Positions 5,501-21,714 of a stretch of 39,459 nt of DNA are shown here, one piece after another (position 1 is the first letter of the stretch; each line of letters opens with the position of its first letter). A program made the translations under genes and the position numbers. The stretch comes from Abditibacterium sp. (GTDB taxonomy: Bacteria; Armatimonadota; Abditibacteriia; Abditibacteriales; Abditibacteriaceae). The stretch lies in the NCBI GenBank assembly GCA_043773205.1, contig JAYVFL010000263.1:1-39459 (forward strand), read 5' to 3'. Under the pieces are notes generated by a model. It did no database searches. It worked only from the letters and a program-made list of their open reading frames with translations, and was not told the origin of the DNA.

Positions 5501-6576
5501 CCATCGGACAAACGAATTTTGCCCGAGGTTGACATGTTAAACGGAGTGACTGGCGTTGCGGGATTATTGTCGTAATCGATACCTTGTGGGGCACCAAAGT
5601 TGGCGGCAGCTTCAACCCGTTCTGGTCCCATCACTGGAGTGATTGGTTGAGCAAGTGTCAAAACGAAATTGGGCCGAGTCCCGACAACTGCAGTGACAAC
5701 TGCGCTGCGAGCCGCTACTCCAGCACGAGGGTTTGATACCGTGATGGAAAAAGGTGTTCCCAATTTTGTAAAGTCGCCCTGCGCGTTGATAACCGGCAGT
5801 GTGGGAGTCGCACCCGTTCCATCGCTTCCAGCCATTGGGTTGGCTTGACCTACCAGGCTTTGTCCCGTCAGAAAATCCCAATTCGAAACCGTGCGCGGCG
5901 TTTGGCCAACAGGCGCATTACGGGAGCCACCGAAATAGCTCACCGAACGCGTGTAGGCGGTGGGATCTTCGGTTGAAATCCCAATAACGGTGATTTCCAA
6001 CGATCCCGCGTATTCGACGCCCGCACTGAGCGGCGCCCGTCTCACTTGAGAGAGGAAAGTCGGAGCATCGCTGACTTGCGCACCTTGAGTGCGGGGATCG
6101 GGCGATTTAACAAGCTCTAATTTGCCAGACGCCGATGAGCGCGTTGCAACAAGGGCAAGGCGTTCGTCATCGGGATCAATTCTGGTTGGAAAAACTTCTC
6201 CATCGCCATCCAAATCTCCGGGATGCGGCGTGGTGCGCGCCCAACCCTGAGCGACTTCCATTGGTGTGTAGTAGAAAGCGTAATCGGCGTCTCCGGGCGC
6301 TGGCGGCACGTTTTCTAATTCGTTGCGCCATTTGTCTCCATCGTTGCTGTATGCCAGTTGCTCTTTGACATATTTCATTCCCGCTTCAGCTGCTACAATC
6401 GAGCGGTTTTTATCGACCTGACGCGCCGTTTGGTTGAGGTTCACCGACACAATCGCGATAAACGAAGCGCTCAAAAGCGCCGCGAAAATCATGATTAAAA
6501 CGGCCAGCAGCAAAGCCTGACCGCGTCGCGGCTGCCTGCAACCGGTTTGGCGATATTGTAAAGAGATTCGGCTCAT
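2539..6576 (-). CDS. Giant PilX/GspK-like minor pilin (~1345 aa), putative pilus-tip adhesin
   Basis: PRRG|QALLLAVLIMIFAALLS is a class III signal without Glu5, followed by the AAEAGM motif of PilX N-termini; several DxDxDG-like Ca-binding loops. Start placed at ATG 6576 because the longer ORF overlaps the upstream gene. Confidence 0.75.
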   Translation of the reverse strand: MSRISLQYRQTGCRQPRRGQALLLAVLIMIFAALLSASFIAIVSVNLNQTARQVDKNRSIVAAEAGMKYVKEQLAYSNDGDKWRNELENVPPAPGDADYAFYYTPMEVAQGWARTTPHPGDLDGDGEVFPTRIDPDDERLALVATRSSASGKLELVKSPDPRTQGAQVSDAPTFLSQVRRAPLSAGVEYAGSLEITVIGISTEDPTAYTRSVSYFGGSRNAPVGQTPRTVSNWDFLTGQSLVGQANPMAGSDGTGATPTLPVINAQGDFTKLGTPFSITVSNPRAGVAARSAVVTAVVGTRPNFVLTLAQPITPVMGPERVEAAANFGAPQGIDYDNNPATPVTPFNMSTSGKIRLSDGIGINEVDGARINASLVLTGDLLTTKLRSNAAAFAGNQAPGNIFTSGVIALDATTSQVAIDATATPQMLRSSEINGIFTTGTPNYQLVSDGWNRLSGRASNNSTRNVRDFRPPTIDSGDGVERYRNLTRFSTPLTANRFSGSLNGYGQGIYIDNLQDKEKVFDTTLGSLREMTQSELVEMWLSPTTSAAKNYSRVATTIDANNVATASLEQQHLRGWVGPDEFRGRGVEIELSNLSNGTAILTITRDPRDDNRTGALTNALGPLSQKAWKADTATGATEAGIYRKSPRLWPVNGVLFAEGNVRIKGKVLNAPRSLTVVSMGNIYIEDSLSADSNADGNLATGFPRKILLLAKKNVVMNPTRVLGRPDAQTIVTNTPTVTVGNSVNITVPNTGTSDFRVNDFVETSSSVAGVDTISSIGQITSINSSATSMTVFVRVAPATQIAANSFVRSRAEQNAAATSSTPFKVIRNAGDAMQRRFNIPAMTPPINLANVRIALNHGADRIPAMKVETEDFGGGTKPASGTFLSNKRVLDTPQTSFVTTATNVSEVNKRVRGDFSSPSPAGTDSFPATAITAEPSAQNFDLTELKNEMELRTHLNAPVGWKYKVTLLPTATPLYSSIPFFYLAGIGNRYDFGATPPLVAAGGLIGWQGKIANSDVAAGAYDVPVATSISMWVNGPTAPAIMSNENWNGTAYDQTGAFGFDPTFLNSTSGANREDILTGDQGFYQTSTGTAPVRSTLDSRSVGALNVGLNSFTLRQNALAANVLPAAALPDYRMLGMKLEDVALTTSNSTTTKINSGHIFDVNAFVYAQNGSWFVIPGPTFESRLHGDATQTFMDLTTPAVFPAVPDAGEYLDTGNGTWDVGEYADLNRNGTIEDSERYAMTRYARYNYQINFTGAISENQTALVNDVVVGTTVTAKGAVADWMNKWATTTFDSTAATQLTNDRIKYIFDPTVVLNGFQQNDLSTTPDDTDYGFRLPQVPEVFNVS

Positions 6577-6616
6577 GGAAAAACCTGAAATGAACTGTTG
6601 GAAAGCGAAATTCCGC

Positions 6617-7771
6617 TTAATTTGGGCAACCCGCATTCGGCAGATCGAAAGTTTGAGAAACGGGCACACGCTGCGCCTTACCTTGCCCATTGACGGCTGC
6701 CGCGCCAATCTGGTCGTATTGAGCCAGAGTCATGTTAACGGTAATGCGGTCGATGCGTTTGCCATCGGATGTACTTTCGACAAACGAAAGCTCAGGAATG
6801 TAAGAACCGGCACCGCCAGCCGGAGCGGACGGAGCGACCAGTTGCATTCCGCGCGGCGTAATCAAAGTGTGCGAACCGATAACATCCTCTGCGACTTGGT
6901 TGCCCGTTGTTGAAGGAGTTTCAGATGCGTCAATACACAAGGGCTGTAAATTTGCCTCGCCGAAGAAATTGTGGGTGATCCACAGAAAATTACGGTTGAT
7001 AATGGCATCATTACTTCCACTTACAAGAGCGGCAGGGAGCTTAGTCCAATCTGTTTCTACATTTATTGATGTTGGTGGACTTGGTGAACTTGGTGAATCT
7101 TTGGCAGGCTGATCTTTAAATGAGGTGTTGGGAACCATTCCCTCTAAACGACGATATGGATATTGGGCGCGAAACAGGACAATGGGATTGTCGATGACAT
7201 CGTAACGTTTAGAAATATCCAAACGACGTGGATAATAAGTAACCACGTAATCTTCGCCCACTTGTGATGCTCTTCCATTATTGCGACCTAAAAGAAGCAT
7301 GTCAATCCGACTCGGATTGCTGATAGCCTTGACCGAATTGCTTGTAATTCCAATGCCTGAGAGAGCTGGATCAGAGGTTGCGCCAGGGGCTACGTCAGAC
7401 CTAATATACGGAAGGCGCTTCCAATCTGTATTTCCATTAGTTCCGTTAGAGGGGTAAGGTGCCAACGCGCAATCAGATGCTAAATTCGCAGTGTTATCGC
7501 TAATTCCAGAGATGCGAGAATTAGGAAACACGAAGTTGGCGCGCTTGAAATCTTTGCTGATTTGCTGCATTGTGAGCTGCATTTCTTGTTGCAACCCAGA
7601 GCGCGCGGTTCCAATGTGGTAGGTCTCGAAGCCCAACCTCAAAGGAACCAAGATGATCGCTAAAAGCAGCGACATAATAGATACCGCTACCAAAATCTCA
7701 ACTAAAGTGAATCCGCTGCGCCGTTGCACTTTGCGGCGCAACTTGGGGTGAAATTGAATTGAATGTTTCAT
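6617..7771 (-). CDS. PilW/GspJ-like minor pilin with N-terminal methylation motif
   Basis: RRSG|FTLVEILVAVSIMSLLL followed by an amphipathic helix (MQQISKDFKRA); ATGA overlap with the upstream gene. Confidence 0.8.
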   Translation of the reverse strand: MKHSIQFHPKLRRKVQRRSGFTLVEILVAVSIMSLLLAIILVPLRLGFETYHIGTARSGLQQEMQLTMQQISKDFKRANFVFPNSRISGISDNTANLASDCALAPYPSNGTNGNTDWKRLPYIRSDVAPGATSDPALSGIGITSNSVKAISNPSRIDMLLLGRNNGRASQVGEDYVVTYYPRRLDISKRYDVIDNPIVLFRAQYPYRRLEGMVPNTSFKDQPAKDSPSSPSPPTSINVETDWTKLPAALVSGSNDAIINRNFLWITHNFFGEANLQPLCIDASETPSTTGNQVAEDVIGSHTLITPRGMQLVAPSAPAGGAGSYIPELSFVESTSDGKRIDRITVNMTLAQYDQIGAAAVNGQGKAQRVPVSQTFDLPNAGCPN

Positions 7772-8796
7772 GGCGATGGAACGCAGTCAGTTATCAAAAT
7801 AGTAGAAGGTGTAGATGTAACCAGCATGTCCTCAGCCTTTTCTCGCGGCACACGCTGCCAACCTGAACAAGTGCCCGTGTTAGACCCAGACGCATTCTGC
7901 ACATTTTGAACTACGGGAAGGCTCTGAACGCTGCCATCGGAAAACAACACGTTGTCGAAATTACGGCTTGTCGTGCGAGTGAGACCGTCTTTGTCCAGAG
8001 GACGATGGAAGCGGCACCAAGTTAAAACGGTCATGTCCTTAATGGAGCGATCAACAATTCGCGTTGCATTGCTTGAAGTGTCGATTTTGTAAGGAGTGAT
8101 TTGACGATATTTTATTGTGGCTTCCGGCCTTCTAAAACTCGAATAAGTCGGTTCAGCCGCTGGTGAATCGTCTGTCACTTGATAAGACAAATAAGACGGA
8201 TTCAAGTAATTGTAATTACCGTCTTTGATTAGCAGAGTGGGGCTGTCCACAGTTGCCGTTTTGCAATCGAAAGTAGGTGAAGTGGTGTCTGTTAAATCCC
8301 GGTATTGAACGTCGCGGCTAAAGTTGTCGGCGGGACAGTGAAAAATCTTGGCACTGCGAACGTAGCCTGAAAGCCCGACGAAACCATTGGCGACCTGAGA
8401 GGAATCTTCCAATTGCGCAGGCAAATCAACACTGGACAAAGAGCAATTTGTGCTGGCAGTGGCGCTCAACGAATCGGGTCTTTGAAATCCAGGTTTGCCA
8501 AATGTATATAACGACCATAGGCCAATGCCGCCTTTTAAGGTCTCATTAATATTTGAGTAACCCCCCATGTTGGGATCGCCATTTTCGTTTATATAGGGCA
8601 GACGACCGTCGTAATCCTGCGAATAGAGCCTCACCGATTTATAAATCTGGGATAGATTGCTCTGGCAGGATGTGCGCTTATTCCCATCGGAAATAGAGCG
8701 AAATGCACCGAAAGAAATCGAGCTAATAATGGCGATAACAGCCAAAACTACCAGAAGCTCAACCAGTGTAAAGCCACTTTTGTGTTGTTTGCGCAT
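7768..8796 (-). CDS. Prepilin-type protein, DUF1559/H-X9-DG-like
   Basis: KSG|FTLVELLVVLAVIAII, CQSNLSQI, YSQDYDGRLP, IFHCPAD and C-terminal NVLFSDGSV. Confidence 0.85.
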   Translation of the reverse strand: MRKQHKSGFTLVELLVVLAVIAIISSISFGAFRSISDGNKRTSCQSNLSQIYKSVRLYSQDYDGRLPYINENGDPNMGGYSNINETLKGGIGLWSLYTFGKPGFQRPDSLSATASTNCSLSSVDLPAQLEDSSQVANGFVGLSGYVRSAKIFHCPADNFSRDVQYRDLTDTTSPTFDCKTATVDSPTLLIKDGNYNYLNPSYLSYQVTDDSPAAEPTYSSFRRPEATIKYRQITPYKIDTSSNATRIVDRSIKDMTVLTWCRFHRPLDKDGLTRTTSRNFDNVLFSDGSVQSLPVVQNVQNASGSNTGTCSGWQRVPREKAEDMLVTSTPSTILITDCVPSP

Positions 8797-10826
8797 TATT
8801 TGCTATCTCCTCGAAACCCAATCGTGGATACCTGGGCGAAATTAGAGCCATCGAGCCATGCTGTCCGCGCTTGGATGCTAATACCTTTAACGGAACGGAT
8901 CGCGTTAATCATAAGTGCACTGCTACCAGATAATTGCGGCTCTGCATAAGCTAACCAACTGTCGCCATTGGCGTCAGTAATAGCCAAATCTTGTGTTGCA
9001 CCGGCAGGAGCATCCGCGGCCCGGATCCAACGAGTGTTGATTGTAATTACATCGTTTGTGACTTCTTTCTTAAGGAATGCATCCGTATAAACGTAAGACA
9101 ATGAAATTGTTTTACCCGCTTCAGATGGTGGAAAGAAAATTCTGCCCGGTTGGGAGCCTGAAGCTGCGTTCCACACATAATAACGCCAAGGCTCAGCCAC
9201 ACTGACGTTACCGACATCGCCTACAAATTGGAGAGAGGTGTTCCTGTTATTCAATCCAACACCGTAATAGGGTGTGTAGTTAGAGGGAGCAACCGAGAGC
9301 TGATGCGTCCAACTGTCTAAGTTTTGATAAACAACGCGGGACTGGAAAACCTGATAATCCTCAGTGTTGTCAAATCGGTCGTTGGTATCAAATAAAATAC
9401 GACCGCCTTTACGATTGATGCCCCACAGAAAAAATGGATTGTTCGCCGATAAGTTGGCTATCGCTTCGGTTGGCGCAGTGATTGGCGGCGTAGCAAGAGT
9501 GTCACTAACATTTAATGCGTTGGCTTGCAGCGTCGGATATTTAGTCATTGTCGCTGGGTTTGTCGCGAGATAAGACATCAGCGCAAATGTAGCAGGAGAC
9601 GGGGTTGTTCCATCTCCACCATCCGATAGCGCCCTGAGTGGCAAAACAACTTCACGCGGTGTGCGTTGGAGCGGAGTTGGAGGAACTGTGACTGGCCCTG
9701 GTGTGGGTGTGACTTCTGGAATAATCGAAGGCACGCTATTGCTTACAATTTGACGCCAGTCGTTAATTTGATAATCAACGCTCACTTCATCACCTTCAAC
9801 AAGTGGACTAACGCCATTTGAAACATTGGTTAAAACCAGAACCCCAAGATTATTGAGAGTATTTTGAACTTCTATGTCACTGCTCACATTGGGATTGTTG
9901 ACAGGATTAATCAGCTGCCGGCGAAATTTCAACTGAATAGGGCCATCTATCACACGGGATTGGTTAAGCGCTCCGGTGGCAGGCGAATCGGGGAAACGAC
10001 GCCCTTGTAAAAGGCGCGCTTGGCTTATAGTGATGTTTGGATTGGTGCCATTTGGGGTGGATGAACGTAAAACTTCATCATTCGTGGCATTCACAATACC
10101 ATTTGTTAGTCCACCTGAGATAGCATCCAAATATTTGTAGCTGGCGTAGTAAAAATCTTCAGGATTCGCTGAGGTCAGTTGTGCAGAAGCAAGGGAAGGC
10201 TCTGCTTCTGTGAAATTGAGAAAGCCACTTTTCCTCGTTGGCGTTGCGCCACTGTTATCGAGCCTTGTTTCAGCAACAACTCCGCTGACAGGAATCTCTT
10301 TATAAACCTGAGCCAAAGGAGGCCGGGTTTGATTGGGCGCGCTTCCCACCAAAGGCCCAGCAATTGGGAAAGACGTTAAAACGTAGTCAATCGGCGTTGG
10401 AACGCCGCCCACTAAAACGAAAACTCTGCGAACGATTTGCTTTTCGCCACTGATATATTTGAACCGGCCCAGCGCAGACAAATTGTCCACGGCCTGCAAG
10501 TTACGCTTGGGGAGCGAATTGTTGCGAATCGCCGAGCCTATAACTGCCGTGGGGCCTGAACCGGGAATATCTGCAGTGATGTATGTATCGTGGACTGAAG
10601 AGGGAACTGCGCTCGACTCTTTGGCGAAACGCGCCAAGGCGGTGCGATTCAAACTGAGCGCTGTGGCTTTGTCACCCGAATTCTGGATGAGGCCCAACGC
10701 AGGAGGAAAGATGCGAATAATCGCTATTGCGCCGAAGAGAAAAATCGCCAGAGCAATAACAACCTCTACCAAGGTGAAACCGCCGCGACGGGTTGCGTCG
10801 CGGCGGGAAAAAAGAGCTTCGTTCAT
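8796..10826 (-). CDS. Large PilV/GspI-like minor pilin (676 aa)
   Basis: RRGG|FTLVEVVIALAIFLFGAIAIIRIFP; Pro/Thr-rich internal linker; TAATG coupling to the next gene. Confidence 0.8.
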   Translation of the reverse strand: MNEALFSRRDATRRGGFTLVEVVIALAIFLFGAIAIIRIFPPALGLIQNSGDKATALSLNRTALARFAKESSAVPSSVHDTYITADIPGSGPTAVIGSAIRNNSLPKRNLQAVDNLSALGRFKYISGEKQIVRRVFVLVGGVPTPIDYVLTSFPIAGPLVGSAPNQTRPPLAQVYKEIPVSGVVAETRLDNSGATPTRKSGFLNFTEAEPSLASAQLTSANPEDFYYASYKYLDAISGGLTNGIVNATNDEVLRSSTPNGTNPNITISQARLLQGRRFPDSPATGALNQSRVIDGPIQLKFRRQLINPVNNPNVSSDIEVQNTLNNLGVLVLTNVSNGVSPLVEGDEVSVDYQINDWRQIVSNSVPSIIPEVTPTPGPVTVPPTPLQRTPREVVLPLRALSDGGDGTTPSPATFALMSYLATNPATMTKYPTLQANALNVSDTLATPPITAPTEAIANLSANNPFFLWGINRKGGRILFDTNDRFDNTEDYQVFQSRVVYQNLDSWTHQLSVAPSNYTPYYGVGLNNRNTSLQFVGDVGNVSVAEPWRYYVWNAASGSQPGRIFFPPSEAGKTISLSYVYTDAFLKKEVTNDVITINTRWIRAADAPAGATQDLAITDANGDSWLAYAEPQLSGSSALMINAIRSVKGISIQARTAWLDGSNFAQVSTIGFRGDSK

Positions 10827-10850
10827 TTCTGAAGTCCAAGTGGAGCGATA

Positions 10851-11708
10851 TTAATTGGTCTGTGTCTGCCAGAAGTTGGTGGGTGGCGTCGCAGTTTTCC
10901 ACTGCGTGACGTCTACGGCTTTCGCACTTCCATCAAGGCGCAAAACGATGTCTCTGGTATTTGCGCTGTCGATGGGAGTCGGGCCATAAAGTTCGCCTGG
11001 AGTGGTTACGTTTTTACCAGTCTGAAAACGGTGATGAATACAGTGAGTAATAATGGTTGCCGGGGGCGCAAACCGGTTCGACATCGAAAATTTAATGAGA
11101 TTTTCGGTCGCATTGGCATTGAACCCTGTCGCAAGCTGCTGATTGTAGGGAAGTGCCGGGTTGACTAACAAAACTCTGGCGGGCACCGGGGTTGTCGCAG
11201 TGGCTGCCTCGGTGGGATTGGCGTAAGTGAAGCCATCTTCGCGCGTGCCCCAGTAATTCCAAACGAACTGGCTTAAATCGCCCGTGAAATTGGTTGAATT
11301 GATTTGTCCGGTTGGGAGCGGCGTTGGCTGTGCGGTTTTTGACAAAAAACCATAAGAAGAACGCGGCACATCAGAGAGAGTGTCGTCGTTTTGGCAAGTC
11401 AAAGAGTCTTGACCCGCTTTGAAGTAGCCTGGCGCGTTATTTCCTAAAGTCGCGGGCGTCGTTGTGCCGTCGTTGTATTTGGCACCCTCGGCCAGAATAT
11501 CCAGCAAAGTGGCGGGATAGCGGCCTTCGTCCTGCTTGTAAAGCTGAACCGCAGCATATATTTGCTGCAAATTGCTTTGACAATTGGTCTGGCGGGCACT
11601 TTCTTTCGCGCGATTAAACGCGGGGAAAAGAATCGCCGCCAAAATCGCAATGATGGCCAGCACGACCAGAATTTCTACCAGAGTAAAGGCACTTCGACGC
11701 TTGTTCAT
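10851..11708 (-). CDS. Prepilin-type protein, DUF1559-like
   Basis: MNKRRSA|FTLVEILVVLAIIAILAAILFPAFNRAKESARQTNCQSNLQQI is a classic DUF1559-type N-terminus; AGAGGA SD before ATG 11708; C-terminal VLRLDGSAK. Confidence 0.88.
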   Translation of the reverse strand: MNKRRSAFTLVEILVVLAIIAILAAILFPAFNRAKESARQTNCQSNLQQIYAAVQLYKQDEGRYPATLLDILAEGAKYNDGTTTPATLGNNAPGYFKAGQDSLTCQNDDTLSDVPRSSYGFLSKTAQPTPLPTGQINSTNFTGDLSQFVWNYWGTREDGFTYANPTEAATATTPVPARVLLVNPALPYNQQLATGFNANATENLIKFSMSNRFAPPATIITHCIHHRFQTGKNVTTPGELYGPTPIDSANTRDIVLRLDGSAKAVDVTQWKTATPPTNFWQTQTN

Positions 11709-11772
11709 AAATCCTCTTATTTGAAGGCAAAGCCACACCGGGTTATCAACTGATTAATAACCAATACAGGGA

Positions 11773-11813: not shown

Positions 11814-12767
11814 TCAGCGCGCACCGAACATTGAGGGTTCGGGTATCAAAAGCCGCATATAAGCGGCGTTAATTTCTGTGCCATAAAGCAGCGCTGCAAC
11901 GGCTCCGATAGCGAGCATCGGGCCAAATGGCATCACTTTTCGAAAAGCACGTCGCGCCAGCAAACCGGCAATCGACTTTTTCCCATAACGCTGCTCACGA
12001 CTTTTTGCCCATTTATAAGAGCGAATTGCACGCGGAATTTGTGCACTTACTCCGATGAAAGCTCCCAGGGTGGCAGCGAGAAAGAAGAATGTCAATAATG
12101 TTGCGTTCCAACCTAAATTTGCTGCAATGGCCGCAACCAAAAGAACATCGCCAAAGCCAAGGGCCTCTTTTTTGTAGAGGCGCGAAAAACCCTCCCGCAC
12201 CAACCAAAGTCCTGTTGCACAAATTGTCATCGCTAAAATCGAAGCCGGAAGGGGAGCGGGAAGCATAGCGGCAAAAAGCGCGCCATTTTCCAACCGTGCG
12301 CCTTGAGATGCACGCCACGCATCGAAAGCCACGCCTGCCACGCCCATTAACAGCACCGATTCCAGCTGAATCAAACGCGTGTCGTAGTCCACAAAAAACA
12401 CCACGACGAGCGTAGAAACAAAAACCAGATCTCTGACTAAACGGGCATAATCTCCCGTCCAGGCCGCGAAAAAGCTCCCATCCGCCAGGTTTCCCGACTG
12501 CAATGCGACTAAAAGAAACAAAATGGCCGTTAGCAGCTCGATACCGAAATAACGCCACGAGAATTTTGCTCCGCAATACCGGCATTTTCCGCCCAAATAG
12601 AGTTGCGAAACTAACGGCACCAGGTCCATGCCGCGCAACCGCGTGTTGCAAGTGGGGCAGTGCGATGGCGGATGCGCGATGCTTTCGTGCCTTGGCATTC
12701 GCCAGATACAAACATTCAAAAACGAACCGATATTGGCGCCCAAAACGAACAGAATCAGCGGAAACAT
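11814..12767 (-). CDS. pilD: Prepilin peptidase / N-methyltransferase (A24A)
   Basis: GSFLNVCIWRMP, SHCPTC and GKCRYC Zn motifs, DYDT and GFGDV catalytic aspartates, C-terminal PFGPML. Confidence 0.95.
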   Translation of the reverse strand: MFPLILFVLGANIGSFLNVCIWRMPRHESIAHPPSHCPTCNTRLRGMDLVPLVSQLYLGGKCRYCGAKFSWRYFGIELLTAILFLLVALQSGNLADGSFFAAWTGDYARLVRDLVFVSTLVVVFFVDYDTRLIQLESVLLMGVAGVAFDAWRASQGARLENGALFAAMLPAPLPASILAMTICATGLWLVREGFSRLYKKEALGFGDVLLVAAIAANLGWNATLLTFFFLAATLGAFIGVSAQIPRAIRSYKWAKSREQRYGKKSIAGLLARRAFRKVMPFGPMLAIGAVAALLYGTEINAAYMRLLIPEPSMFGAR

Positions 12768-12828: not shown

Positions 12829-14061
12829 TTACTTGTCGTCGCCACCCGACAAACCGTTGATAAGCGCAATCATCGGCATGAACATCGCGATAACGATGAA
12901 GCCGACCATCAAACCCAAGCCAACGATCATTAAAGGCTCAATCGTCGCCGCGAGCTGTTCTAACTGCGTTTCGACTTCCACAGCGTAAAAGTCGGCGACT
13001 TTGCCGAGCATTTGGTCCAAAGCGCCAGTTTCTTCGCCGATGGCAATCATTTGCACAACCATAGCGGGAAAGAGTTTCGATTTTTCCAGCGGGTCGCCAA
13101 TCGGGTCGCCTTCGCGAATTCGCGCGCGGGCGTTCATGATGACATCGGTGAAAGTCTCGTTGTCAATGGCCGCCGAAACCGTTTCTAACGCCTGCAGAAT
13201 CGGCACGCCCGAAGTGAGTAGGGTAGAAAGCGTGCGGCAAAAACGCTCGACCGCGATGTTATGCGACAATTTGCCGAAAACCGGCACTTTCATTTTGTAT
13301 TTGTCGTAAACCCGTTTGCCCCACGTCGTTTTCTTCCATTTTTTAAATCCGCCTGTGGTGAGGACGATAAATATAATGGTCGGGACTATGCTTTTCGGAT
13401 TGGTCATGAAGTTCGAGGCCGAAATCAGCGCCAGCGTGATGGCGGGCATCTCGATTTTGAAATCTTTGAAAATTTCCATGAACTTCGGCACGATGAACGT
13501 CACCAAGAACGTCACGATGACAATCGCGACCACGCCGACCAAAACCGGATACGTCATCGCGGCTTTAATCTTTTGGCGCATCCGAATGTCGGACTCCATA
13601 AATTGAGCCAAACGATCCAGGGTCTCGTCCAAGACGCCGCCGACTTCGCCCGCGCGCACCAAACCAAGACACAAGTTAGAAAACGCAACCGGATGGTGAG
13701 ACATCGCGCGCGACAAGGTTTCGCCCGCTTCGACGCGGTTTTGCACGTCGCGAATGATGTCTTTCAGTTTGGTGTTCGTCGTCTGCTTTTCCAAAACCGA
13801 CAAGCAGCGCACGAGTGAAACGCCTGCGTTGATCATCGTGGCGAACTGACGGCAAAAAATGGAGATTTGCTGCATCTTCACTTTCTGCATCGCTTTGAGC
13901 GGGTTGAATTTCTTCTTTTTGGCGACTTCCGCCGCGACGGATTGAATCCAGAAACCCTGATCTTGCAAACGCTTTTGCAACATCTTTTCATTGGGCGCTT
14001 CGATGCGGCCCCGATGAATTTTTCCGGCCTGATCTTTGGCCACATATGCGAAAACCGGCAT
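12829..14061 (-). CDS. pilC: Type IV pilus inner-membrane platform protein (GspF family)
   Basis: MPVFAY start with GGGAG SD; FCRQFATMINAG, AGEVGGVLD, AMTYP, IGEETGALDQML and IEP motifs. Confidence 0.95.
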   Translation of the reverse strand: MPVFAYVAKDQAGKIHRGRIEAPNEKMLQKRLQDQGFWIQSVAAEVAKKKKFNPLKAMQKVKMQQISIFCRQFATMINAGVSLVRCLSVLEKQTTNTKLKDIIRDVQNRVEAGETLSRAMSHHPVAFSNLCLGLVRAGEVGGVLDETLDRLAQFMESDIRMRQKIKAAMTYPVLVGVVAIVIVTFLVTFIVPKFMEIFKDFKIEMPAITLALISASNFMTNPKSIVPTIIFIVLTTGGFKKWKKTTWGKRVYDKYKMKVPVFGKLSHNIAVERFCRTLSTLLTSGVPILQALETVSAAIDNETFTDVIMNARARIREGDPIGDPLEKSKLFPAMVVQMIAIGEETGALDQMLGKVADFYAVEVETQLEQLAATIEPLMIVGLGLMVGFIVIAMFMPMIALINGLSGGDDK

Positions 14062-14161: not shown

Positions 14162-15442
14162 TTAACCGTTCATGCCACCCTGAATCATCACTTCGAGTTC
14201 AGCGGGGTTATGAGCGCGGCTCATGGCATCTTCATACGTCACCAAACCGTTCAAGACCAAGTCGCGAAGCGCTTGATCCATGGTTTGCATGCCGATGCCG
14301 TTCTGGGTTTGAATAATCGACGTCATTTGATGCGCTTTGGCCTCACGAATCAGATTTCGGATCGCCGAATTCGCGATCATGATTTCGATTGCGCCAATAC
14401 GTCCGCCCCCGATTTTAGGCAAAAGCTGCTGCGTCACAATCGCAACTAACGAGTTGGAAAGCTGCGTGCGCACCTGTTCCTGCTGGTCGGCTGGAAAAAC
14501 GCCTACCATGCGGTCGATGGATTCCGCCGCTGAGTTGGTGTGCAAAGTGCCAAAAACCAAGTGACCGGTTTCGGCTGCGGTGACAGCCAGGTGAATGGTT
14601 TCGGTGTCGCGCATTTCGCCGACCAAGATTACATCCGGGTCTTCGCGAAGCGAGGCGCGCAAAGCGTTTTTGAACGAGTGAGTGTCGGTTCCCACTTCGC
14701 GCTGGTTCACGATACATTTGCGATGTGGATGCACAAACTCAATCGGATCTTCGATGGTGATGATGTGACCTTCGTGTTCCGAATTGATTTTGTTGATAAT
14801 CGCGGCTAAAGTCGTCGATTTTCCGCTTCCCGTTGGCCCGGTGACAAGCATCAAGCCGCGCGGACGGTTCGCCTGCTCCATGATGACGGGCGGCAGGCCT
14901 AAATCGTCGGGATTGGGGATTTTGGTGGGAATAACGCGCATTGCCGCAGCGAGCGCGCCTTTATCTCGGTAAGCGTTGACGCGAAAACGGGCGCCCGCAT
15001 CGGCTGTTGTGTAAGCGAAATCGAGTTCGAGATCGTTTTCAAAACGCTGGATTTGCTCATCCGACAAAATATCGTAAATGATGCGCTGCAAAACCGAGGC
15101 GCGAACCACTTCGTATTGCTCGATTTCTTTGACGTTGCCGTGAATGCGAATACAGGGCGCTTTTCCAACTGCCAGATGTAAATCGGAGCCTTTGGTGTCG
15201 AGAACATGCTGCAAAAGTTCGTCGATGTGGATTTCATCGAGCGACACTTTTTCAACCGGGGCTTCCACCGGAGTTTCCGATGCGATCCCATTTCCGGCGT
15301 AGCCGCTCTCGCCCGGTGCCTGAGCAGGTCGGGCACCCAAAGGGCGAGGCGTGAGACCATTGCCATTGGTTAAACCTTGCGGGCGCGGTGGAAGTGTGCC
15401 GGGAGCAACCGGACGGCCAACTGTGGCTGGATTTTGTGCCAT
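14162..15442 (-). CDS. pilT: Type IV pilus retraction ATPase
   Basis: GSDLHL, Walker A GPTGSGKST, IEDPIE, LREDPDVILVGEMRD, His-box TLHT and the PilT signature AIRNLIRE; GAGG SD before ATG 15442. Confidence 0.95.
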   Translation of the reverse strand: MAQNPATVGRPVAPGTLPPRPQGLTNGNGLTPRPLGARPAQAPGESGYAGNGIASETPVEAPVEKVSLDEIHIDELLQHVLDTKGSDLHLAVGKAPCIRIHGNVKEIEQYEVVRASVLQRIIYDILSDEQIQRFENDLELDFAYTTADAGARFRVNAYRDKGALAAAMRVIPTKIPNPDDLGLPPVIMEQANRPRGLMLVTGPTGSGKSTTLAAIINKINSEHEGHIITIEDPIEFVHPHRKCIVNQREVGTDTHSFKNALRASLREDPDVILVGEMRDTETIHLAVTAAETGHLVFGTLHTNSAAESIDRMVGVFPADQQEQVRTQLSNSLVAIVTQQLLPKIGGGRIGAIEIMIANSAIRNLIREAKAHQMTSIIQTQNGIGMQTMDQALRDLVLNGLVTYEDAMSRAHNPAELEVMIQGGMNG

Positions 15443-15553
15443 GAAAGATAAAACCTCGAAAAGAATGAAAAACGGAGTCCCCAAAAGAATTCCGTGAAGA
15501 TGACTCGCAAACTCGCGGCCCACACAAAGCGTAGGACGCATTCACCAACCTGA

Positions 15554-15595
15554 ACGTCTGTCGTTCCACGTCTGTTGTTCTACGTCTGTTGTTCT
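15554..15595. repeat. 14-bp tandem repeat x3 (acgtctgtYgttcY) upstream of pilT
   Basis: acgtctgtcgttcc acgtctgttgttct acgtctgttgttct read directly. Confidence 0.85.
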
Positions 15596-15604
15596 ACACG
15601 TCGC

Positions 15605-16129
15605 TTAAATGACGTTAGAAAAACGCATTTCGACGCGTTCACCCCACACAGTGGGATGCGTTGTGACGTGCAACTCGTAAAATTGCTCGTCCACTTGAAG
15701 CCGGATTCGTCCACCTAAAAGAGCATTTTCCTGTTGCAGCTCGATTTGAGCCAGCATTTTGAGACGCGCAACAATTGGTTTAAGTGCCAAAGTCGGCAAT
15801 TTAATATGCTCACGCACATCGCCAGCCACTGTGTAGCGCACGCGCACGTTGCGAGTCTGCGGTTCGATGGAAATAACCGAAGCGCCGTCGCGCACGGCGC
15901 AAAGCAAAATCGTGTTAACGATGCGCTCGACCGGTTCTTGGCCCCGCCAATTATCGGCGCCCGCAGGCGCTTCATTGAGTTCGGGATAAGCCAATTTGAG
16001 CGGCGCAGGCTGCTTCTCTTCTTCGCCGCCCGACTCGAAATCGCGCAGAGTCGCACGTTTTAGCCCTAAAAACGACCAGTATTCGGGTTTCACACGCGCC
16101 TCCTTCACTTGGGATGCGAACTTTCCCAC
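15605..16129 (-). CDS. Stand-alone PilB/GspE N2-domain paralogue without an ATPase domain
   Basis: Its C-terminal ~105 aa align without gaps to the N2 domain of the adjacent PilB (RIVNT.LL.A..DGAS.I.IEPQ...PTVWGE...MR); no Walker motifs; GTG start is uncertain. Confidence 0.75.
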   Translation of the reverse strand: MGKFASQVKEARVKPEYWSFLGLKRATLRDFESGGEEEKQPAPLKLAYPELNEAPAGADNWRGQEPVERIVNTILLCAVRDGASVISIEPQTRNVRVRYTVAGDVREHIKLPTLALKPIVARLKMLAQIELQQENALLGGRIRLQVDEQFYELHVTTHPTVWGERVEMRFSNVI

Positions 16130-16156: not shown

Positions 16157-18061
16157 TTAATGGCCGCCGGTGAAAACGACACGCATCACTTCTTCGACTG
16201 TTGTGTGGCCATCTTTGCACTTTTGGAAGCCGTCTTCCTGTAAAGTGCGCATGCCATTGGCGCGCGCGGCTTCGCGAAGTTCCGTGACCGGGCTGCGTCG
16301 CACGATAAGCTCCTGCATTTCTTCGTTGACGCGCATCAGTTCGTAAATTCCGGTGCGGCCTTTGTATCCCGTCTGTTTGCAGACGTCACAACCGCGTCCG
16401 TGCCAGAATTTTTGCGACGGATTCTTAAGCGGATCGAAGCCAAAACGCATCAAAGTTTCGCGCGGCGGCGTGTATTCTTCTTTGCAGCTCTTGCAAATCG
16501 TGCGCGCGAGGCGCTGCGCCAGTGCGCCTGTAAGCGAGGCCGAAATCAAGAACGGCTCGACGCCCATGTCGCCCAAACGTGTCGCGGTCGATGGCGCATC
16601 GTTGGTGTGAATCGTAGAAAGAACAAAGTGACCGGTGAGCGAGGCTTGGACCGCGATTTCCGCTGTTTCCAAATCTCGAATCTCTCCAACCATGATGACG
16701 TCCGGGTCTTGGCGCAAAAAGGCGCGCAGCGCCGTCGCGAAAGTCAGGCCGGCTTTGCGATTGACCTGAACCTGCGTCAAACCGGGCAACTGGTATTCCA
16801 CCGGGTCTTCCACGGTTGAAACGTTCTTTTCAATGGTGGAAACCACGTTCAAAAGCGAATAAAGTGTGGTGGTTTTGCCTGAACCTGTCGGGCCGCAAAC
16901 ATAAAGCATGCCGTTCGGCTGGTTGGCGATGTCGAGCAATTCTTCCTGATGGTCGGGATACAAGCCGATTTTGTCCAAACCGAGCATAACCGAAGATTTG
17001 TCCAGGACGCGCATGACGATTTTCTCGCCCCACACCGTTGGACAGGTGTTGACGCGCATGTCGTATTCCTTGCCCTGCATGGTGAGTTTGATACGTCCGT
17101 CCTGGGGCACACGGCGCTCGGCGATGTTCATTTCCGACATGATTTTGATACGCGAAATCAGCGGATTCAAAACATACTGCGGGATTTTCATCTGCTCGTG
17201 CAAAACGCCGTCGATGCGGTAGCGAATGCGCACGCCGCGTTGCTGCGGCTCGATGTGAATGTCACTGGCTCCGTCTTTCAGGGCGTAAAGCAGCACCGTG
17301 TTCACGATGCGGATAATTGGCGCTTCTTCGGCTAATGTTCCGTTGGACGAGACTGAATCGGGGTTGAGGTTGGTTCCAGCTTTGGCCGCGTCCTCTTCGG
17401 ACACGACCTCGACTTTTTTGACCTTCTTTTTCTTGGCATTTTCGTCTTCGACGACTTCCACCGGCGCGACTTCGCCCAAAATGGCAGCCATGTCGTCGTC
17501 GTATTTGTCCCAGGCTTCGGGTGCAAGCGGGTCGCTGTCGGCTGGTTTTTCGGCGGCGCCATTTTCGCCGGAGTGCCCATTTGAACCGTTGCCGTTGGAG
17601 AGACTGGAGAGTTTGCCGTTTTTAAAGGCTTCAACTTGCGACGGCGCCGCCAAAACGCCGCGAATTTCCATTTTGGTGCGGGTTTTGAGGTCTTCTATCG
17701 CGTAGAAATTTTTGGGGTCGTCCATCGCCACAACGAGCGTGTTGCCCTCGATGGCGACGGGCGTGACTTTCAAACGCGCTTGCAGGTCGTCGGGAACGAG
17801 GCCTTTGGCTTCGTCCGAAGTCGTCATTTTGAGCAAATTGACGAACGAAACGCCGATGACTTCGGCACGCGCTTCGGTAATATCGACGTCCGAAAGCCCC
17901 ATTTCCAACAGAATTGCTTCCATCGGCGTGCCGGGCGCGTTTTGCATGCGCCGTTTGAACTCGTTGCCTTGTTCTTGACTGAGCTTGCCCTTATCAAAAA
18001 GAACGTGAGCAACTGTTTTACGATTCGCGCCCGCGACGGGCTGAGGAGTGGAAAGCGCCAT
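16157..18061 (-). CDS. pilB: Type IV pilus assembly ATPase (GspE/PulE family)
   Basis: GASDIHIEP, ERRVPQDGR, Walker A GPTGSGKTT, VEDPVE, LRQDPDVIMVGEIRD, HTND, CKSC...CDVC Zn motif and GYKGR; GAGG SD before ATG 18061. Confidence 0.95.
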   Translation of the reverse strand: MALSTPQPVAGANRKTVAHVLFDKGKLSQEQGNEFKRRMQNAPGTPMEAILLEMGLSDVDITEARAEVIGVSFVNLLKMTTSDEAKGLVPDDLQARLKVTPVAIEGNTLVVAMDDPKNFYAIEDLKTRTKMEIRGVLAAPSQVEAFKNGKLSSLSNGNGSNGHSGENGAAEKPADSDPLAPEAWDKYDDDMAAILGEVAPVEVVEDENAKKKKVKKVEVVSEEDAAKAGTNLNPDSVSSNGTLAEEAPIIRIVNTVLLYALKDGASDIHIEPQQRGVRIRYRIDGVLHEQMKIPQYVLNPLISRIKIMSEMNIAERRVPQDGRIKLTMQGKEYDMRVNTCPTVWGEKIVMRVLDKSSVMLGLDKIGLYPDHQEELLDIANQPNGMLYVCGPTGSGKTTTLYSLLNVVSTIEKNVSTVEDPVEYQLPGLTQVQVNRKAGLTFATALRAFLRQDPDVIMVGEIRDLETAEIAVQASLTGHFVLSTIHTNDAPSTATRLGDMGVEPFLISASLTGALAQRLARTICKSCKEEYTPPRETLMRFGFDPLKNPSQKFWHGRGCDVCKQTGYKGRTGIYELMRVNEEMQELIVRRSPVTELREAARANGMRTLQEDGFQKCKDGHTTVEEVMRVVFTGGH

Positions 18062-18474
18062 AAAAACCTCTAACGGAAATGGATTCGAGACAACACCGGC
18101 AAACAACGTTATGTCCAAAAGCTGCAAACCCAATTGCAAAAAATGCAAAACAGGTTGGAAACAACACAAAAGCTATACAAGGCACCCAAAAGAGCGCCTC
18201 CAGTTCGAACAGCGATAATTTTACCCGAAAATCATCGAGAGTTGGAAGCAGTTATAAGCTGGCGCACATAGTTTGTGGGCCAATGAGAGCCAGGTCAGAG
18301 GAGAATCGGAGGAGAAAACGCAAGACGCGATGTCAAAGTCAAGCGTTCCCGCGCCCTTCACGCCCGATTTCGCTGATGCGCCTGATTTTGCCGATGCGCG
18401 CAACCTGAACCAATTTCCAGTTGTCCGTTTTTCTGCTTCTCTTCCCGTTTCTGTTAATTGTTCCTGCTCCCAAA

Positions 18475-21400
18475 ATGCGCCGCTCCCTTTCCCTCCTCTT
18501 ACTTTTGAGTTTTTGCTACTCCAATTCGCGCGCCATCGCCGCACCCGAATTTCTCGATGACGAGGCCGAGATCGCCTGCGACGTCGAGTTTTCGCTGCAA
18601 AAAGCCGCTACTGGCCGTTTTGCGCTTCATTTCGACACTCAAAACCCCAAAAACGGCTACATCATGGAAGCGACGCCAACTGGCGCGTCGTTTTTCGCGT
18701 TGCAAAACGGCCAAAAACGGCTTTTATCGAGCGCCAATCTGGTCTGGAAAGCGCAAAATCGTGTGGTTTTGCAGCGTCGGCCCTGGGTGATGCGACTTTT
18801 AATAGATAATCGCGTGGCTTTGACCGCTTTCGATTCCACGTTTCAAAGCGGCAAAATCGGCTCGGAAACCCTTGGGGGTGCGCCCGCATTGGCTACATCA
18901 TTACCCACAGCGGGTTGGAAATGGAACGATGCGCGCGTGCAGCCGGTGGAAAACATTCGTTTCGACGATGATTTCACGCGCGCCGACGGCTCGGGCGATT
19001 CGGCCTGGCAAAGCGCGTCGGGAAAATGGGCGCTCACCGCAAGTTCGACGCACGTTAACGCTCGCAACGCGACGATGAGTTCCAATCCTTTCGCGTTTGA
19101 GGCCAGCGCGCCCAAAAGCAGCGCACTGGCGCGTGCGGGCCGAAAATTCTGGGATTCCTACGATGCGCGCGTGGCCGCGCGTCCGCTGGGGCGCGGCACC
19201 ATCGGCATCGCGGCCTATGTGCAAGACCCCCAAAATTACCTCGCTTTCACCTGGAGCGGAGTGGAAAGTGCGGCATCGCGGCGCCTGATTCGGGTGAAAA
19301 ACGGCGTCACGACGACTTTGGCCAGCGCGTCGGGCGCGTTTTTGCCGCGCGCCTGGAGTGAAATCGGAATTCGCACCTCGCCGGGCGGGGTGGAAGCGCT
19401 TCTCGATGGCGCCCCGGTATTGCGCGCGAGCGATGACTCGTTTGGGCGCGGCCAGGTCGGTTTGATCGCCCAGAATTTGGAAGCCGCGTCCTTCGATGAT
19501 GTGCGCGTGCGCTCGGCAGAAATCTACCGGCAGAACCGCGCTTTGAAAGATGGAAGTTTCGTCAGTCGCGGCGCGTTTTCACTCACCGGACGCGCCAATA
19601 TGGACAACTACCGCTTGCTCGCGCCGCTTCAAAGCGCCCAAAGCGGAGCGTTTGGCCTGGTCGCAGGCTGGAAAGACGCCGAAAACTACACGCTGTTTCG
19701 CGCGGCGAGCGCATCTTCCGTCGATAAAAGCGGCGCGGCGTTTCGCGGTCGCGCGCAAATCGTGCGTTTTGTGAAAGGCGCACCGCAAATTTTGGGAAAT
19801 GAACCGCTGCGCCTCGATTTAAATCGCAATCCGCGCTTGACACTGCGCGCTCAGGAAGGAATTTTAAGCGTTCTCGACGGCGAAAAAACCGTGGTTCAGG
19901 CCGCGCAAAAAGGCCTCACAACGGGCCAGGCGGGACTTTACAACCCGCAATTTTTCGCGCCAGAAACGGTGCTGTATTTCTCGCCGCCCGCCGAAGCGCC
20001 CAAAGTCGCGGCGCGCATGGAAGATGACGCTTACATGGTCGGCTGGGCCAGCGCGACCGGCGAATGGCCACCCACGCCAGGCGATAACGGCCTCGAATTT
20101 TGGAACAGCGGCGAGTTTTTGGGCGATGCGAACCTCGAATTTCCCTGGCGCGCGACTTATAAAGGCAGTTTCGAGATCGCGCTGCGCGCCGAACGCGAAA
20201 AGTTCAATTCCGGCTACATTTTGCGCGGCGAATCGACAGACGACCTCACAAACGTGAAATGGACGCTCCGGCGCGGCGAAAAAGTGCTGACATCGGCCAT
20301 GGCCTCGCTGGACGCGACTTACAAACCGAGCGGCAGCACAAATAGCACCCCGAGCAGCACCACAGGCGATGCCGTGGACGCGACTGCATTCAAGGTCGTG
20401 TTGGATAATGGCAGCATCACGCTTTTTGCGGCGGGCGCTCCCATTTTAAGCACCTTTGACGCGCTGCCTCCAGCGGGACGCTGCATGGCGGTTCGTTCGC
20501 AAGGTTTCCGGGTGCGCGCCGAGCGATTGCGCGCCGTGAGTTCCAACCGCGACGACAGCACTTTTACCGGCGCGCCAACCGATTTTTACTCGACATCGGG
20601 CCGTTGGAGCATCTTTTCGCGCTGGCCATGCTATGGCGACTGGTCGTTTTTCGGTGGCGCTGGCAAAAACCCGACGCTGTGGAGCAAACGCACTTACGGC
20701 GGCGATGTCGTGGCCGAAATGTATGCCCATCCACAGATGAGCCTGCCCAAAGAGCCAGGTTACACCCATCCCGGCGACCTCAATATCACTCTCGCAGGCG
20801 ATGGGAAAAACCTATCTTCGGGCTACTCTTTCGTTTTGGCGGGCTGGGATAACACCCGGTCGCGCGTGATGCGCGGCTCTAAAGTCATCGCGGAAAACGC
20901 GGGCGATGAAGCCTTTTTTCATGAAACCATCACTAATAACATGAAGTGGCACCGCACCTGGTTTCATATTCGTGCCGAAGCGCGCCGCGCCGCTAAAGAT
21001 GGAAAAAACGGCGTTCAACTCACCTTAACTTTGGACGATGCCGTCATCGTAAGTGCTTTCGACCCCAATCCGCTGCCTCAGTGGGAAAAAGGTGGCCGCG
21101 TCGCGTTTTGGACGCTGGATTCCACCATCATGATCGCGCGCGCCAAAGTCGAAGCCGAATATCTGGGCCTCAAAACGCTGCCCGCCGGTTTGCTCGATTC
21201 AACTCCGCCCCTCGCAACCCCGCTCGCGGCCAATGCGAAAGCGCCGATTCCCATCGTTTCAGGCGACGATGCCACTGCCATCGTGAGCGCCGAAACAGAA
21301 GGTTGGAGCGTCACAGATCCAGCATCTGGCGGGATTTTCGAGGTGAAACTGCCGCTTGCAAAGGTGGAAATCACGCCGAAAACCCGCTTGGAGTTGGATG

Positions 21401-21714
21401 TTCAAATTCCCGCTGGCGTTAAAATCGACGCTTATCTTCAAAGCGAAGACGCGCTTTCAACCATCGAACTTACGGGTGACCAGCCCAACGACCCGATGGC
21501 GCCTTCGCTTGGAAAAATGACCAAAAACGGCGAAAAATGGGGTTTCGATATCGGCGCGGCGCTGCAAAAACGTTTTCCCAGCCAAAAAACCTGGAAAATC
21601 GATGCTCTGAGCCTGGGCGCGCGCCACGGCGAGGCCTATCGCTGGGTTGGCTTCGATGGCAATGCGCTCGGCAGCACTTACAAATTACGCGGCTGGCGTT
21701 TAGTCGAAGGCTAA
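18475..21714 (+). CDS. Large secreted protein with repeated concanavalin-A/LamG (DUF1080-like) beta-sandwich domains
   Basis: Signal peptide MRRSLSLLLLLSFC…AIA|A; repeated end-of-domain motifs (FQSGKIG, FGRGQVGL…SFDDVRV, TTGQAGL, KGGRVAFW). Start placed at ATG 18475. Confidence 0.6.
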   Translation: MRRSLSLLLLLSFCYSNSRAIAAPEFLDDEAEIACDVEFSLQKAATGRFALHFDTQNPKNGYIMEATPTGASFFALQNGQKRLLSSANLVWKAQNRVVLQRRPWVMRLLIDNRVALTAFDSTFQSGKIGSETLGGAPALATSLPTAGWKWNDARVQPVENIRFDDDFTRADGSGDSAWQSASGKWALTASSTHVNARNATMSSNPFAFEASAPKSSALARAGRKFWDSYDARVAARPLGRGTIGIAAYVQDPQNYLAFTWSGVESAASRRLIRVKNGVTTTLASASGAFLPRAWSEIGIRTSPGGVEALLDGAPVLRASDDSFGRGQVGLIAQNLEAASFDDVRVRSAEIYRQNRALKDGSFVSRGAFSLTGRANMDNYRLLAPLQSAQSGAFGLVAGWKDAENYTLFRAASASSVDKSGAAFRGRAQIVRFVKGAPQILGNEPLRLDLNRNPRLTLRAQEGILSVLDGEKTVVQAAQKGLTTGQAGLYNPQFFAPETVLYFSPPAEAPKVAARMEDDAYMVGWASATGEWPPTPGDNGLEFWNSGEFLGDANLEFPWRATYKGSFEIALRAEREKFNSGYILRGESTDDLTNVKWTLRRGEKVLTSAMASLDATYKPSGSTNSTPSSTTGDAVDATAFKVVLDNGSITLFAAGAPILSTFDALPPAGRCMAVRSQGFRVRAERLRAVSSNRDDSTFTGAPTDFYSTSGRWSIFSRWPCYGDWSFFGGAGKNPTLWSKRTYGGDVVAEMYAHPQMSLPKEPGYTHPGDLNITLAGDGKNLSSGYSFVLAGWDNTRSRVMRGSKVIAENAGDEAFFHETITNNMKWHRTWFHIRAEARRAAKDGKNGVQLTLTLDDAVIVSAFDPNPLPQWEKGGRVAFWTLDSTIMIARAKVEAEYLGLKTLPAGLLDSTPPLATPLAANAKAPIPIVSGDDATAIVSAETEGWSVTDPASGGIFEVKLPLAKVEITPKTRLELDVQIPAGVKIDAYLQSEDALSTIELTGDQPNDPMAPSLGKMTKNGEKWGFDIGAALQKRFPSQKTWKIDALSLGARHGEAYRWVGFDGNALGSTYKLRGWRLVEG

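Follow-up and report, generated by a model that had tools for sequence, protein, structure and literature searches.

The window, that is, the whole stretch of 39,459 nucleotides that was analysed, carries a cluster of motor genes on its minus strand in the order pilB, N2-domain gene, pilT, pilC, pilD and pilin-like genes. The open reading frame at 15605-16129 of the minus strand, between pilB and pilT, was confirmed, and its start was moved from 16129 to 16093 because AAGGAGG lies before a GTG codon at 16091-16093 and homologues begin there; the revised product is 162 aa long. Homologue lengths were 159-169 aa for 33 of the 36 sequences in alignment A1, with all but one beginning at the GTG column, and an SD-like motif precedes the start in 19 of 22 loci. 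The features of the locus are listed below.

15605..16093, minus strand: stand-alone PilB N2-domain gene, 162 aa, GTG start (corrected), TAA stop
16099..16105, minus strand: ribosome-binding site AAGGAGG, 5 nt upstream of the GTG
15947..16093, minus strand: N-terminal extension, residues 1-49, acidic (mean net charge -4.7), low-confidence structure
15617..15940, minus strand: N2 domain copy, residues 52-159, with the PilB/GspE N2D fold (Pfam, fold searches, prediction)
16157..18061, minus strand: pilB extension ATPase, Walker A intact, parent of the N2 copy
17009..17326, minus strand: N2 domain of pilB, the region matched by the copy (BLASTP)
17435..17494, minus strand: conserved hydrophobic motif in the PilB N1-N2 linker (ML..L.P type; family PilB comparison)
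14162..15445, minus strand: pilT retraction ATPase, TIGR01420 above cut-off
12829..14061, minus strand: pilC platform protein (Pfam)
11814..12767, minus strand: pilD prepilin peptidase (Pfam)

Counts of promoters and terminators internal to the locus were at chance level. A 14-bp tandem repeat of 3.1 copies (15554-15597) lies between the N2-domain gene and pilT, and PilT itself bears a Pro-rich N-terminal extension of about 70 residues ahead of its core (window 15300-15445). Four prepilin-type genes of 295-676 aa are followed by a 1389-aa ORF without a Pfam match (window 6617-11738 and 2539-6708), while a 1097-aa ORF at 18421-21714, also without a Pfam match, is divergent from pilB and occupies the same position in most of the genus loci read.

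The encoded protein aligned without gaps to residues 282-387 of the neighbouring PilB, with 46 of 106 positions identical (43%, E 1e-30, BLASTP), in close agreement with the roughly 46 of 105 counted in the original prediction, and no similarity to the neighbouring PilT was found by BLASTP. Its sole Pfam match, T2SSE, covers only profile positions 4-111 of 370, and its C-terminus corresponds to PilB residue 392, slightly beyond the N2D boundary at which the frame had been said to end; as described in PMC5424180, the Geobacter PilB N2D spans residues 181-288, and by alignment its R286 is R387 of the neighbouring PilB. AlphaFold2 predictions (36 and 52 sequences) gave pLDDT values mostly of about 90 or above for the N2 domain and of 41-71 for the extension of about 50 residues. 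Fold searches placed PilB and GspE N2 domains first, with EpsE among the matches (1p9w; Z 16.4, rmsd 2.2, 107 aligned), and the protein thus has the PilB/GspE N2 fold, with no PilZ domain. The C-terminal ATPase domain, with its Walker A/B, Asp and His boxes, is absent, and the TIGR02538 score was 75 bits against a cut-off of 675.65; the protein is therefore not a member of the PilB/GspE ATPases (TIGR02538, PF00437).

A profile search of 27 genomes of the family recovered a full-length, short-frame orthologue in each of the 13 genomes of the genus and in none of the 14 genomes from five other genera, one of which is 63% complete and gave no match of any kind. The order pilB, N2-domain gene, pilT was seen on one contig in 12 of the 13 genus genomes and is interrupted by a contig end in the 13th. 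Among the metagenome loci with the gene, pilT follows in 12 of 12 and pilB precedes in 11 of 12, the contig ending in the remaining one. Where the corresponding junction was readable, in 11 genomes of other genera, pilT comes immediately after pilB in 10, and in the eleventh, G032, the two genes flank another freed N2 domain, one that carries an N-terminal zinc ribbon (L060:2878-3447) and may fill the slot's role independently. Across 151 sampled genomes of the phylum, full-length short-frame matches came only from the seven genus members, among the matches listed (150 of 207), and of 1.84 billion representatives searched, 14 matched at E up to 1e-30, the top rows being family members of 109-183 aa, some of them deeper-branching. 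Homologues that bear a name come from Abditibacterium, to which the genus was therefore assigned. The orthologue in the cultured A. utsteinense is 81% identical, compared with 96% for PilC. In the window only one stop lies between pilB and the gene, and the two share a reading frame; such a single in-frame stop follows pilB in only 7 of 22 loci, and the close relatives L085 and L086 differ in frame. A conserved read-through fusion with pilB was rejected on the basis of the 7 of 22 count.

Selection was assessed by Nei-Gojobori counting on 24 coding sequences, which gave 276 pairs, 217 of them with a finite dS. In all 217 the dN/dS ratio was below 1; it ranged from 0.04 to 0.23 across the 13 closest pairs, with values for the closest of 0.041 (95% bootstrap 0.009-0.092), 0.13, 0.135, 0.076 and 0.119. 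The frame is intact in all 13 genus genomes and in all 12 metagenome loci, at synonymous distances above 1. It is thus a real conserved gene and not a decaying duplicate, and the earlier claim that the frame was selected rather than decaying is borne out both by its intact syntenic orthologues and by these ratios, which show purifying selection on a gene fixed between pilB and pilT throughout the genus. Its rate of change is several times that of the PilB N2D (dN 0.146 against 0.018 in one pair) and similar to that of PilB's own N1 region. In a quick maximum-likelihood tree, which has long branches and leaves the exact sister of the clade unsure, the 19 sampled members formed a single clade (SH-aLRT 99, stem 1.05) among the PilB N2Ds of the family, which indicates a single origin through an old duplication of the family's own PilB N2 domain.

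Conserved positions were then compared in the residue numbering of the 670-aa PilB, with counts given over 52 family members. Residues were mapped by alignment to Geobacter PilB (R372 = R271, R387 = R286, R359 = R257), and the interface mapping was based on what the BfpD and Geobacter PilB papers describe (PMC9765406, PMC5424180). Among 61 PilB/GspE rows with an intact Walker A, 31 columns were at least 80% invariant, of which 12 were kept and 11 lost in the family. The lost set comprises D303, H305, R318, D320, L323, V385, R372 and the I349-D357 loop. R318 and D303 are each kept in 3/52, H305 and D320 in 2/52 and V385 in 1/52, the last being replaced by Glu in 45/52, and the loop (ERRxPQD) retains R352 and P355 in 0/52 and D357 in 2/52, and its length, 16 residues in PilB, ranges here from 12 to 35. 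Substitutions at the ring-facing positions are D303 to A or L, H305 to S, T or F and R318 to T, V or I. Kept in all 52 members are R287, A296, A301, P330, P336, K/R342 and M/L344, with partial retention of E307 (49/52), R316 (47/52), K/R383 (45/52) and R387 (38/52).

All four motif changes named in the original prediction (SDIH to SVIS, RIDG to TVAG, ERRVPQDGR to QENALLGGR and DMRVN to ELHVT) are present in the sequence. PilB R318, the Arg of RIDG, aligns with R140 of BfpD, allowing for a one-residue numbering offset, and that residue is described as forming a salt bridge to the RxDPD motif of the neighbouring subunit (PMC9765406); this RxDG inter-subunit Arg is present in only 3/52 members. 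The two arginine fingers are not jointly retained either, as the R372 equivalent is found in 1/52 and the R387 equivalent in 38/52. In Geobacter, the former (R271) is reported to bind the Asp-box Glu and help to sense the gamma-phosphate, whereas the latter (R286) contacts phosphate directly (PMC5424180). The claim that a nucleotide-contacting Arg had been lost needs correction: R372, within DMRVN, is gone, but R387, which makes the direct phosphate contact, is still present. The wider suggestion of a targeted loss agrees with the family-wide pattern, in which the lost residues are the ring-forming and catalytic set, and the sheet face that binds the ATPase domain of the next subunit is largely lost.

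The surface inferred to be still under selection is a hydrophobic patch formed by the start of helix 1 and the turn between strand 3 and helix 2. In Pseudomonas PilB, a hydrophobic patch on N2 (F187, P228, P229, L232 and I236) is reported to bind the protein's own N1-N2 linker as well as the phage inhibitor Aqs1, and to support hexamer stability (PMC13436744). Its equivalents here, mapped from residue spacing via the Geobacter sequence without a direct alignment to Pseudomonas PilB, are I288, I329, P330, V333 and L337, each of which carries a compatible residue in 52/52 members; the patch residues L99 and P100 (protein numbering) are invariant in the 52. Adjoining the patch in sequence are three family-specific residues, E56, R94 and H96, each present in at least 90% of the 52 members, at positions where the PilB of the genus has I, H and Q in 13/13; the direction faced by R94 and H96 was taken from strand register and not from coordinates. 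The extension in turn has a set of conserved residues (W6, L9, G10, L11, A14, L16, D18, E26, Q28 and P29), and shares its position and its acidic, hydrophobic composition with the PilB linker as described in PMC13436744. In 18 of 19 PilBs of the family, a linker motif (ML..L.P type) is found 47-61 residues ahead of the N2D, and the copy at 17435-17494 of the window may correspond to the linker leucines of Pseudomonas. By eye, the motif can also be recognised in P0072, an unrelated freed N2D, and nine or ten N2D proteins of the zinc-ribbon type match the PilB profile over positions 1-66 only, ending just past the patch.

Given these observations, the reading preferred here, at a probability of roughly 40%, is that the gene encodes a non-catalytic accessory protein which regulates PilB at the linker-patch site by an exchange of linkers. 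The protein would act at the docking site of the PilB N1-N2 linker and not as a subunit of the ATPase ring, its acidic extension, studded with hydrophobic residues, presumably standing in for a linker. Linkers would be swapped with PilB, such that either the patch of the protein captures the PilB linker or the extension fills the patch of PilB, and the exchange would tune how easily PilB forms hexamers or stays on the machine. Damping of extension is the likelier sign of the effect. Tests gave no support, however, for homology of the extension with the PilB linker motif (hhalign probability of 0.06; 21 of 21 shuffle p values above 0.05) or with the PilB N1 region (hhalign 0.11), so that the resemblance of extension and linker is one by eye and position only. 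Patch conservation may also reflect the fold alone, since P330 caps helix 2, and the extension could dock on the protein's own patch and thereby neutralise both. The linker-patch mechanism itself is known from Pseudomonas and some other proteobacteria only, and its structural model is described by its own authors as low-confidence (PMC13436744). The retention of R387, E307, R316 and K/R383 leaves room for a contact with the ATPase domain in remodelled form. An amphipathic, membrane-targeting N-terminal helix was also considered and rejected, as the mean hydrophobic moment was 0.22 and the extension is net acidic.

The best-surviving alternative, itself rather doubtful, is that the free N2 domain serves as a decoy or placeholder on the platform, binding the cytoplasmic domains of PilC in competition with the docking of PilB. 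In published AlphaFold models, the N2D sits on the platform through helix 2 and the loop behind it (PMC10790770; 10.1101/2025.10.14.680967), and the half of this contact formed by helix 2 is well represented in the family, P336, K/R342 and M/L344 being universal and R340 being kept in 40/52, but I343 is kept in only 10/52 and E346 in 1/52, and the loop half of the modelled contact is lost with R352, P355 and the fixed loop length. Natural fusions of PilC domains with N2D-bearing proteins, found in 5 of 149 representatives screened, would also favour such a partnership, although one of them, P0140, is possibly an assembly chimera. A monomer would, moreover, be expected to lack the avidity of a hexamer. 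The fusions join PilC cytoplasmic domains to an N2D or PilB-like protein in P0055, P0071, P0160 and P0140, and the PilC N-domain to an N2D or PilB-like protein in P0094.

It is unlikely that the protein is instead an adaptor or chaperone for PilT, PilM, the PilB N1 domain or another partner, acting via the extension and the remodelled sheet face. The ring-facing positions have turned hydrophobic or small, and together with the Glu that replaces V385 they resemble a rebuilt surface; the genome also encodes PilM and further PilT-family genes. A rebuilt face could, however, be covered by the protein's own extension, the protein shows no similarity to PilT, and positive evidence for such a partner is absent. 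The PilM match of the source genome falls in an 861-aa frame and is interrupted by a long insert (L099, G000 C54), and the only PilZ match in this genome, which is 79% complete, lies in a 555-aa frame.

The original prediction had proposed a dominant-negative or adaptor protein, and a subunit poisoning the ring through the normal hexamer contact was accordingly weighed. In such a cap, the N2 copy would replace a subunit of PilB or PilT at the N2D-CTD interface, which is described as the main inter-chain contact, of about 1,600 square angstroms (PMC5424180); E307, R316, K/R383 and R387 are largely kept, and SDIH and R318 survive in P0039 and P0046, two deep-branching members. It is nevertheless precisely the residues of this contact that have been lost: with the central salt-bridge Arg of RIDG and the Asp of SDIH each kept in 3/52, its His in 2/52, and D320 and V385 as scarce as noted above, the dominant-negative subunit is unsupported. 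A cap would be expected to keep the ring face and lose other surfaces, the opposite of what was observed, and since most of the sheet surface packing against the adjacent subunit is gone, this reading is very unlikely. Lastly, a partial duplicate undergoing decay, or a tail translated by read-through from pilB, would fit the faster change relative to the PilB N2D and the single in-frame stop seen in this window, but is extremely improbable given the intact frames at high synonymous distance, the ratios below 1 at a rate comparable to that of the PilB N1 domain, the differing frames of other loci and the gene's own SD-like motif.

Freed, degenerate N2 domains recur in relatives, as proteins with a zinc ribbon and membrane segments, as tandem copies, as tiny stand-alone forms and as fusions, most of them single unannotated sequences. 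In 32 such sequences, which were hand-picked as degenerate and short and not blindly, so that they illustrate a common pattern without giving its frequency, P330 was kept in 31/32, D303 in 2/32 and D357 in 1/20. A zinc ribbon with hydrophobic segments and a degenerate N2 was seen in L044, L047, L049, L050, L051, L052, L055, L056, L058 (two genes) and L061 and in P0060 and P0086, and the members of this group, some of them tandem-duplicated, are scattered through genomes of the family. Very small stand-alone N2s of 120-150 aa occur in L045, L046, L054, P0053 and P0062, and a second type with a conserved N-terminal helix motif in L043 and L053. As single sequences, a degenerate N2 stands behind sigma-70 regions 2 and 4 (P0127), behind region 4 (P0164) and behind a zf-HC2 anti-sigma-type finger (P0143). 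One relative also encodes a PilB-like protein whose Walker A is altered and whose N-terminus, judged by eye, is likely to be a helix-turn-helix (L057:1086-2573).

Relative to the N2 domain of PilB/GspE (N-part of PF00437; 5TSG/5TSH, 5ZFR, 1P9W), with which it shares its fold and, in the case of the neighbouring PilB, 43% of its residues, the N2-domain protein retains helix 1, the helix 2 core and the linker/Aqs1 patch. It differs in being encoded by a separate gene without the N1 and ATPase domains, in having its own 50-residue extension, and in lacking the ring-locking Arg, SDIH, one arginine finger and the ERRxPQD loop. Like Aqs1/Tip as described in PMC13436744, it is small and non-catalytic, and those proteins target the same N2 patch that is probably under selection here. 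Unlike the phage-encoded Aqs1/Tip, it is chromosomal, lies within the motor gene cluster and is derived from PilB; moreover, PilB binding has been shown for Aqs1/Tip (PMC13436744), whereas for the N2-domain protein we only infer it. Aqs1/Tip were absent from the fold-search lists, which N2-domain matches dominated. PilZ, FimX and CpiA are likewise chromosomal accessory proteins, which stabilise or inhibit the extension ATPase, but the portion of PMC11656802 available presents none of them as a motor fragment, and PilZ binds the N1 domain. PilU, a PilT paralogue, is similar in being a motor-derived duplicate kept as an accessory adjoining motor genes, but it retains its ATPase and its hexamer, whereas the N2-domain protein has no ATPase domain (10.1101/2025.10.30.685630). 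The available portion of the same review of PilB regulators (PMC11656802) covers PilZ, FimX, CpiA and phage peptides, with no motor-derived fragment among them, and a PilB N2 protein standing alone was nowhere described in the literature covered, from which subscription journals are mostly missing.

The finding is limited to one little-studied genus, within which the cultured A. utsteinense carries an orthologue, so that tests are possible. The pattern of kept and lost residues amounts to a natural experiment, separating the ring-forming, catalytic, platform-binding and linker-binding surfaces of N2. How the motor switches between extension and retraction is an open question, and the known PilB regulators (PilZ, FimX, CpiA, Aqs1/Tip) are unrelated to the motor; if the reading of a linker-patch regulator is true, control by a conserved protein carved out of the motor would be a new route. 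More broadly, and with considerable doubt, the protein may be a host counterpart of Aqs1 that derives from the linker-binding module of the motor and sets the balance of extension and retraction, while its many cousins, joined to zinc ribbons and membrane helices, ECF-type sigma factors, an anti-sigma-type zinc finger or PilC domains, may couple the motor to localisation and gene expression, making N2 a free-standing regulatory module in the Armatimonadota-Abditibacteriota.
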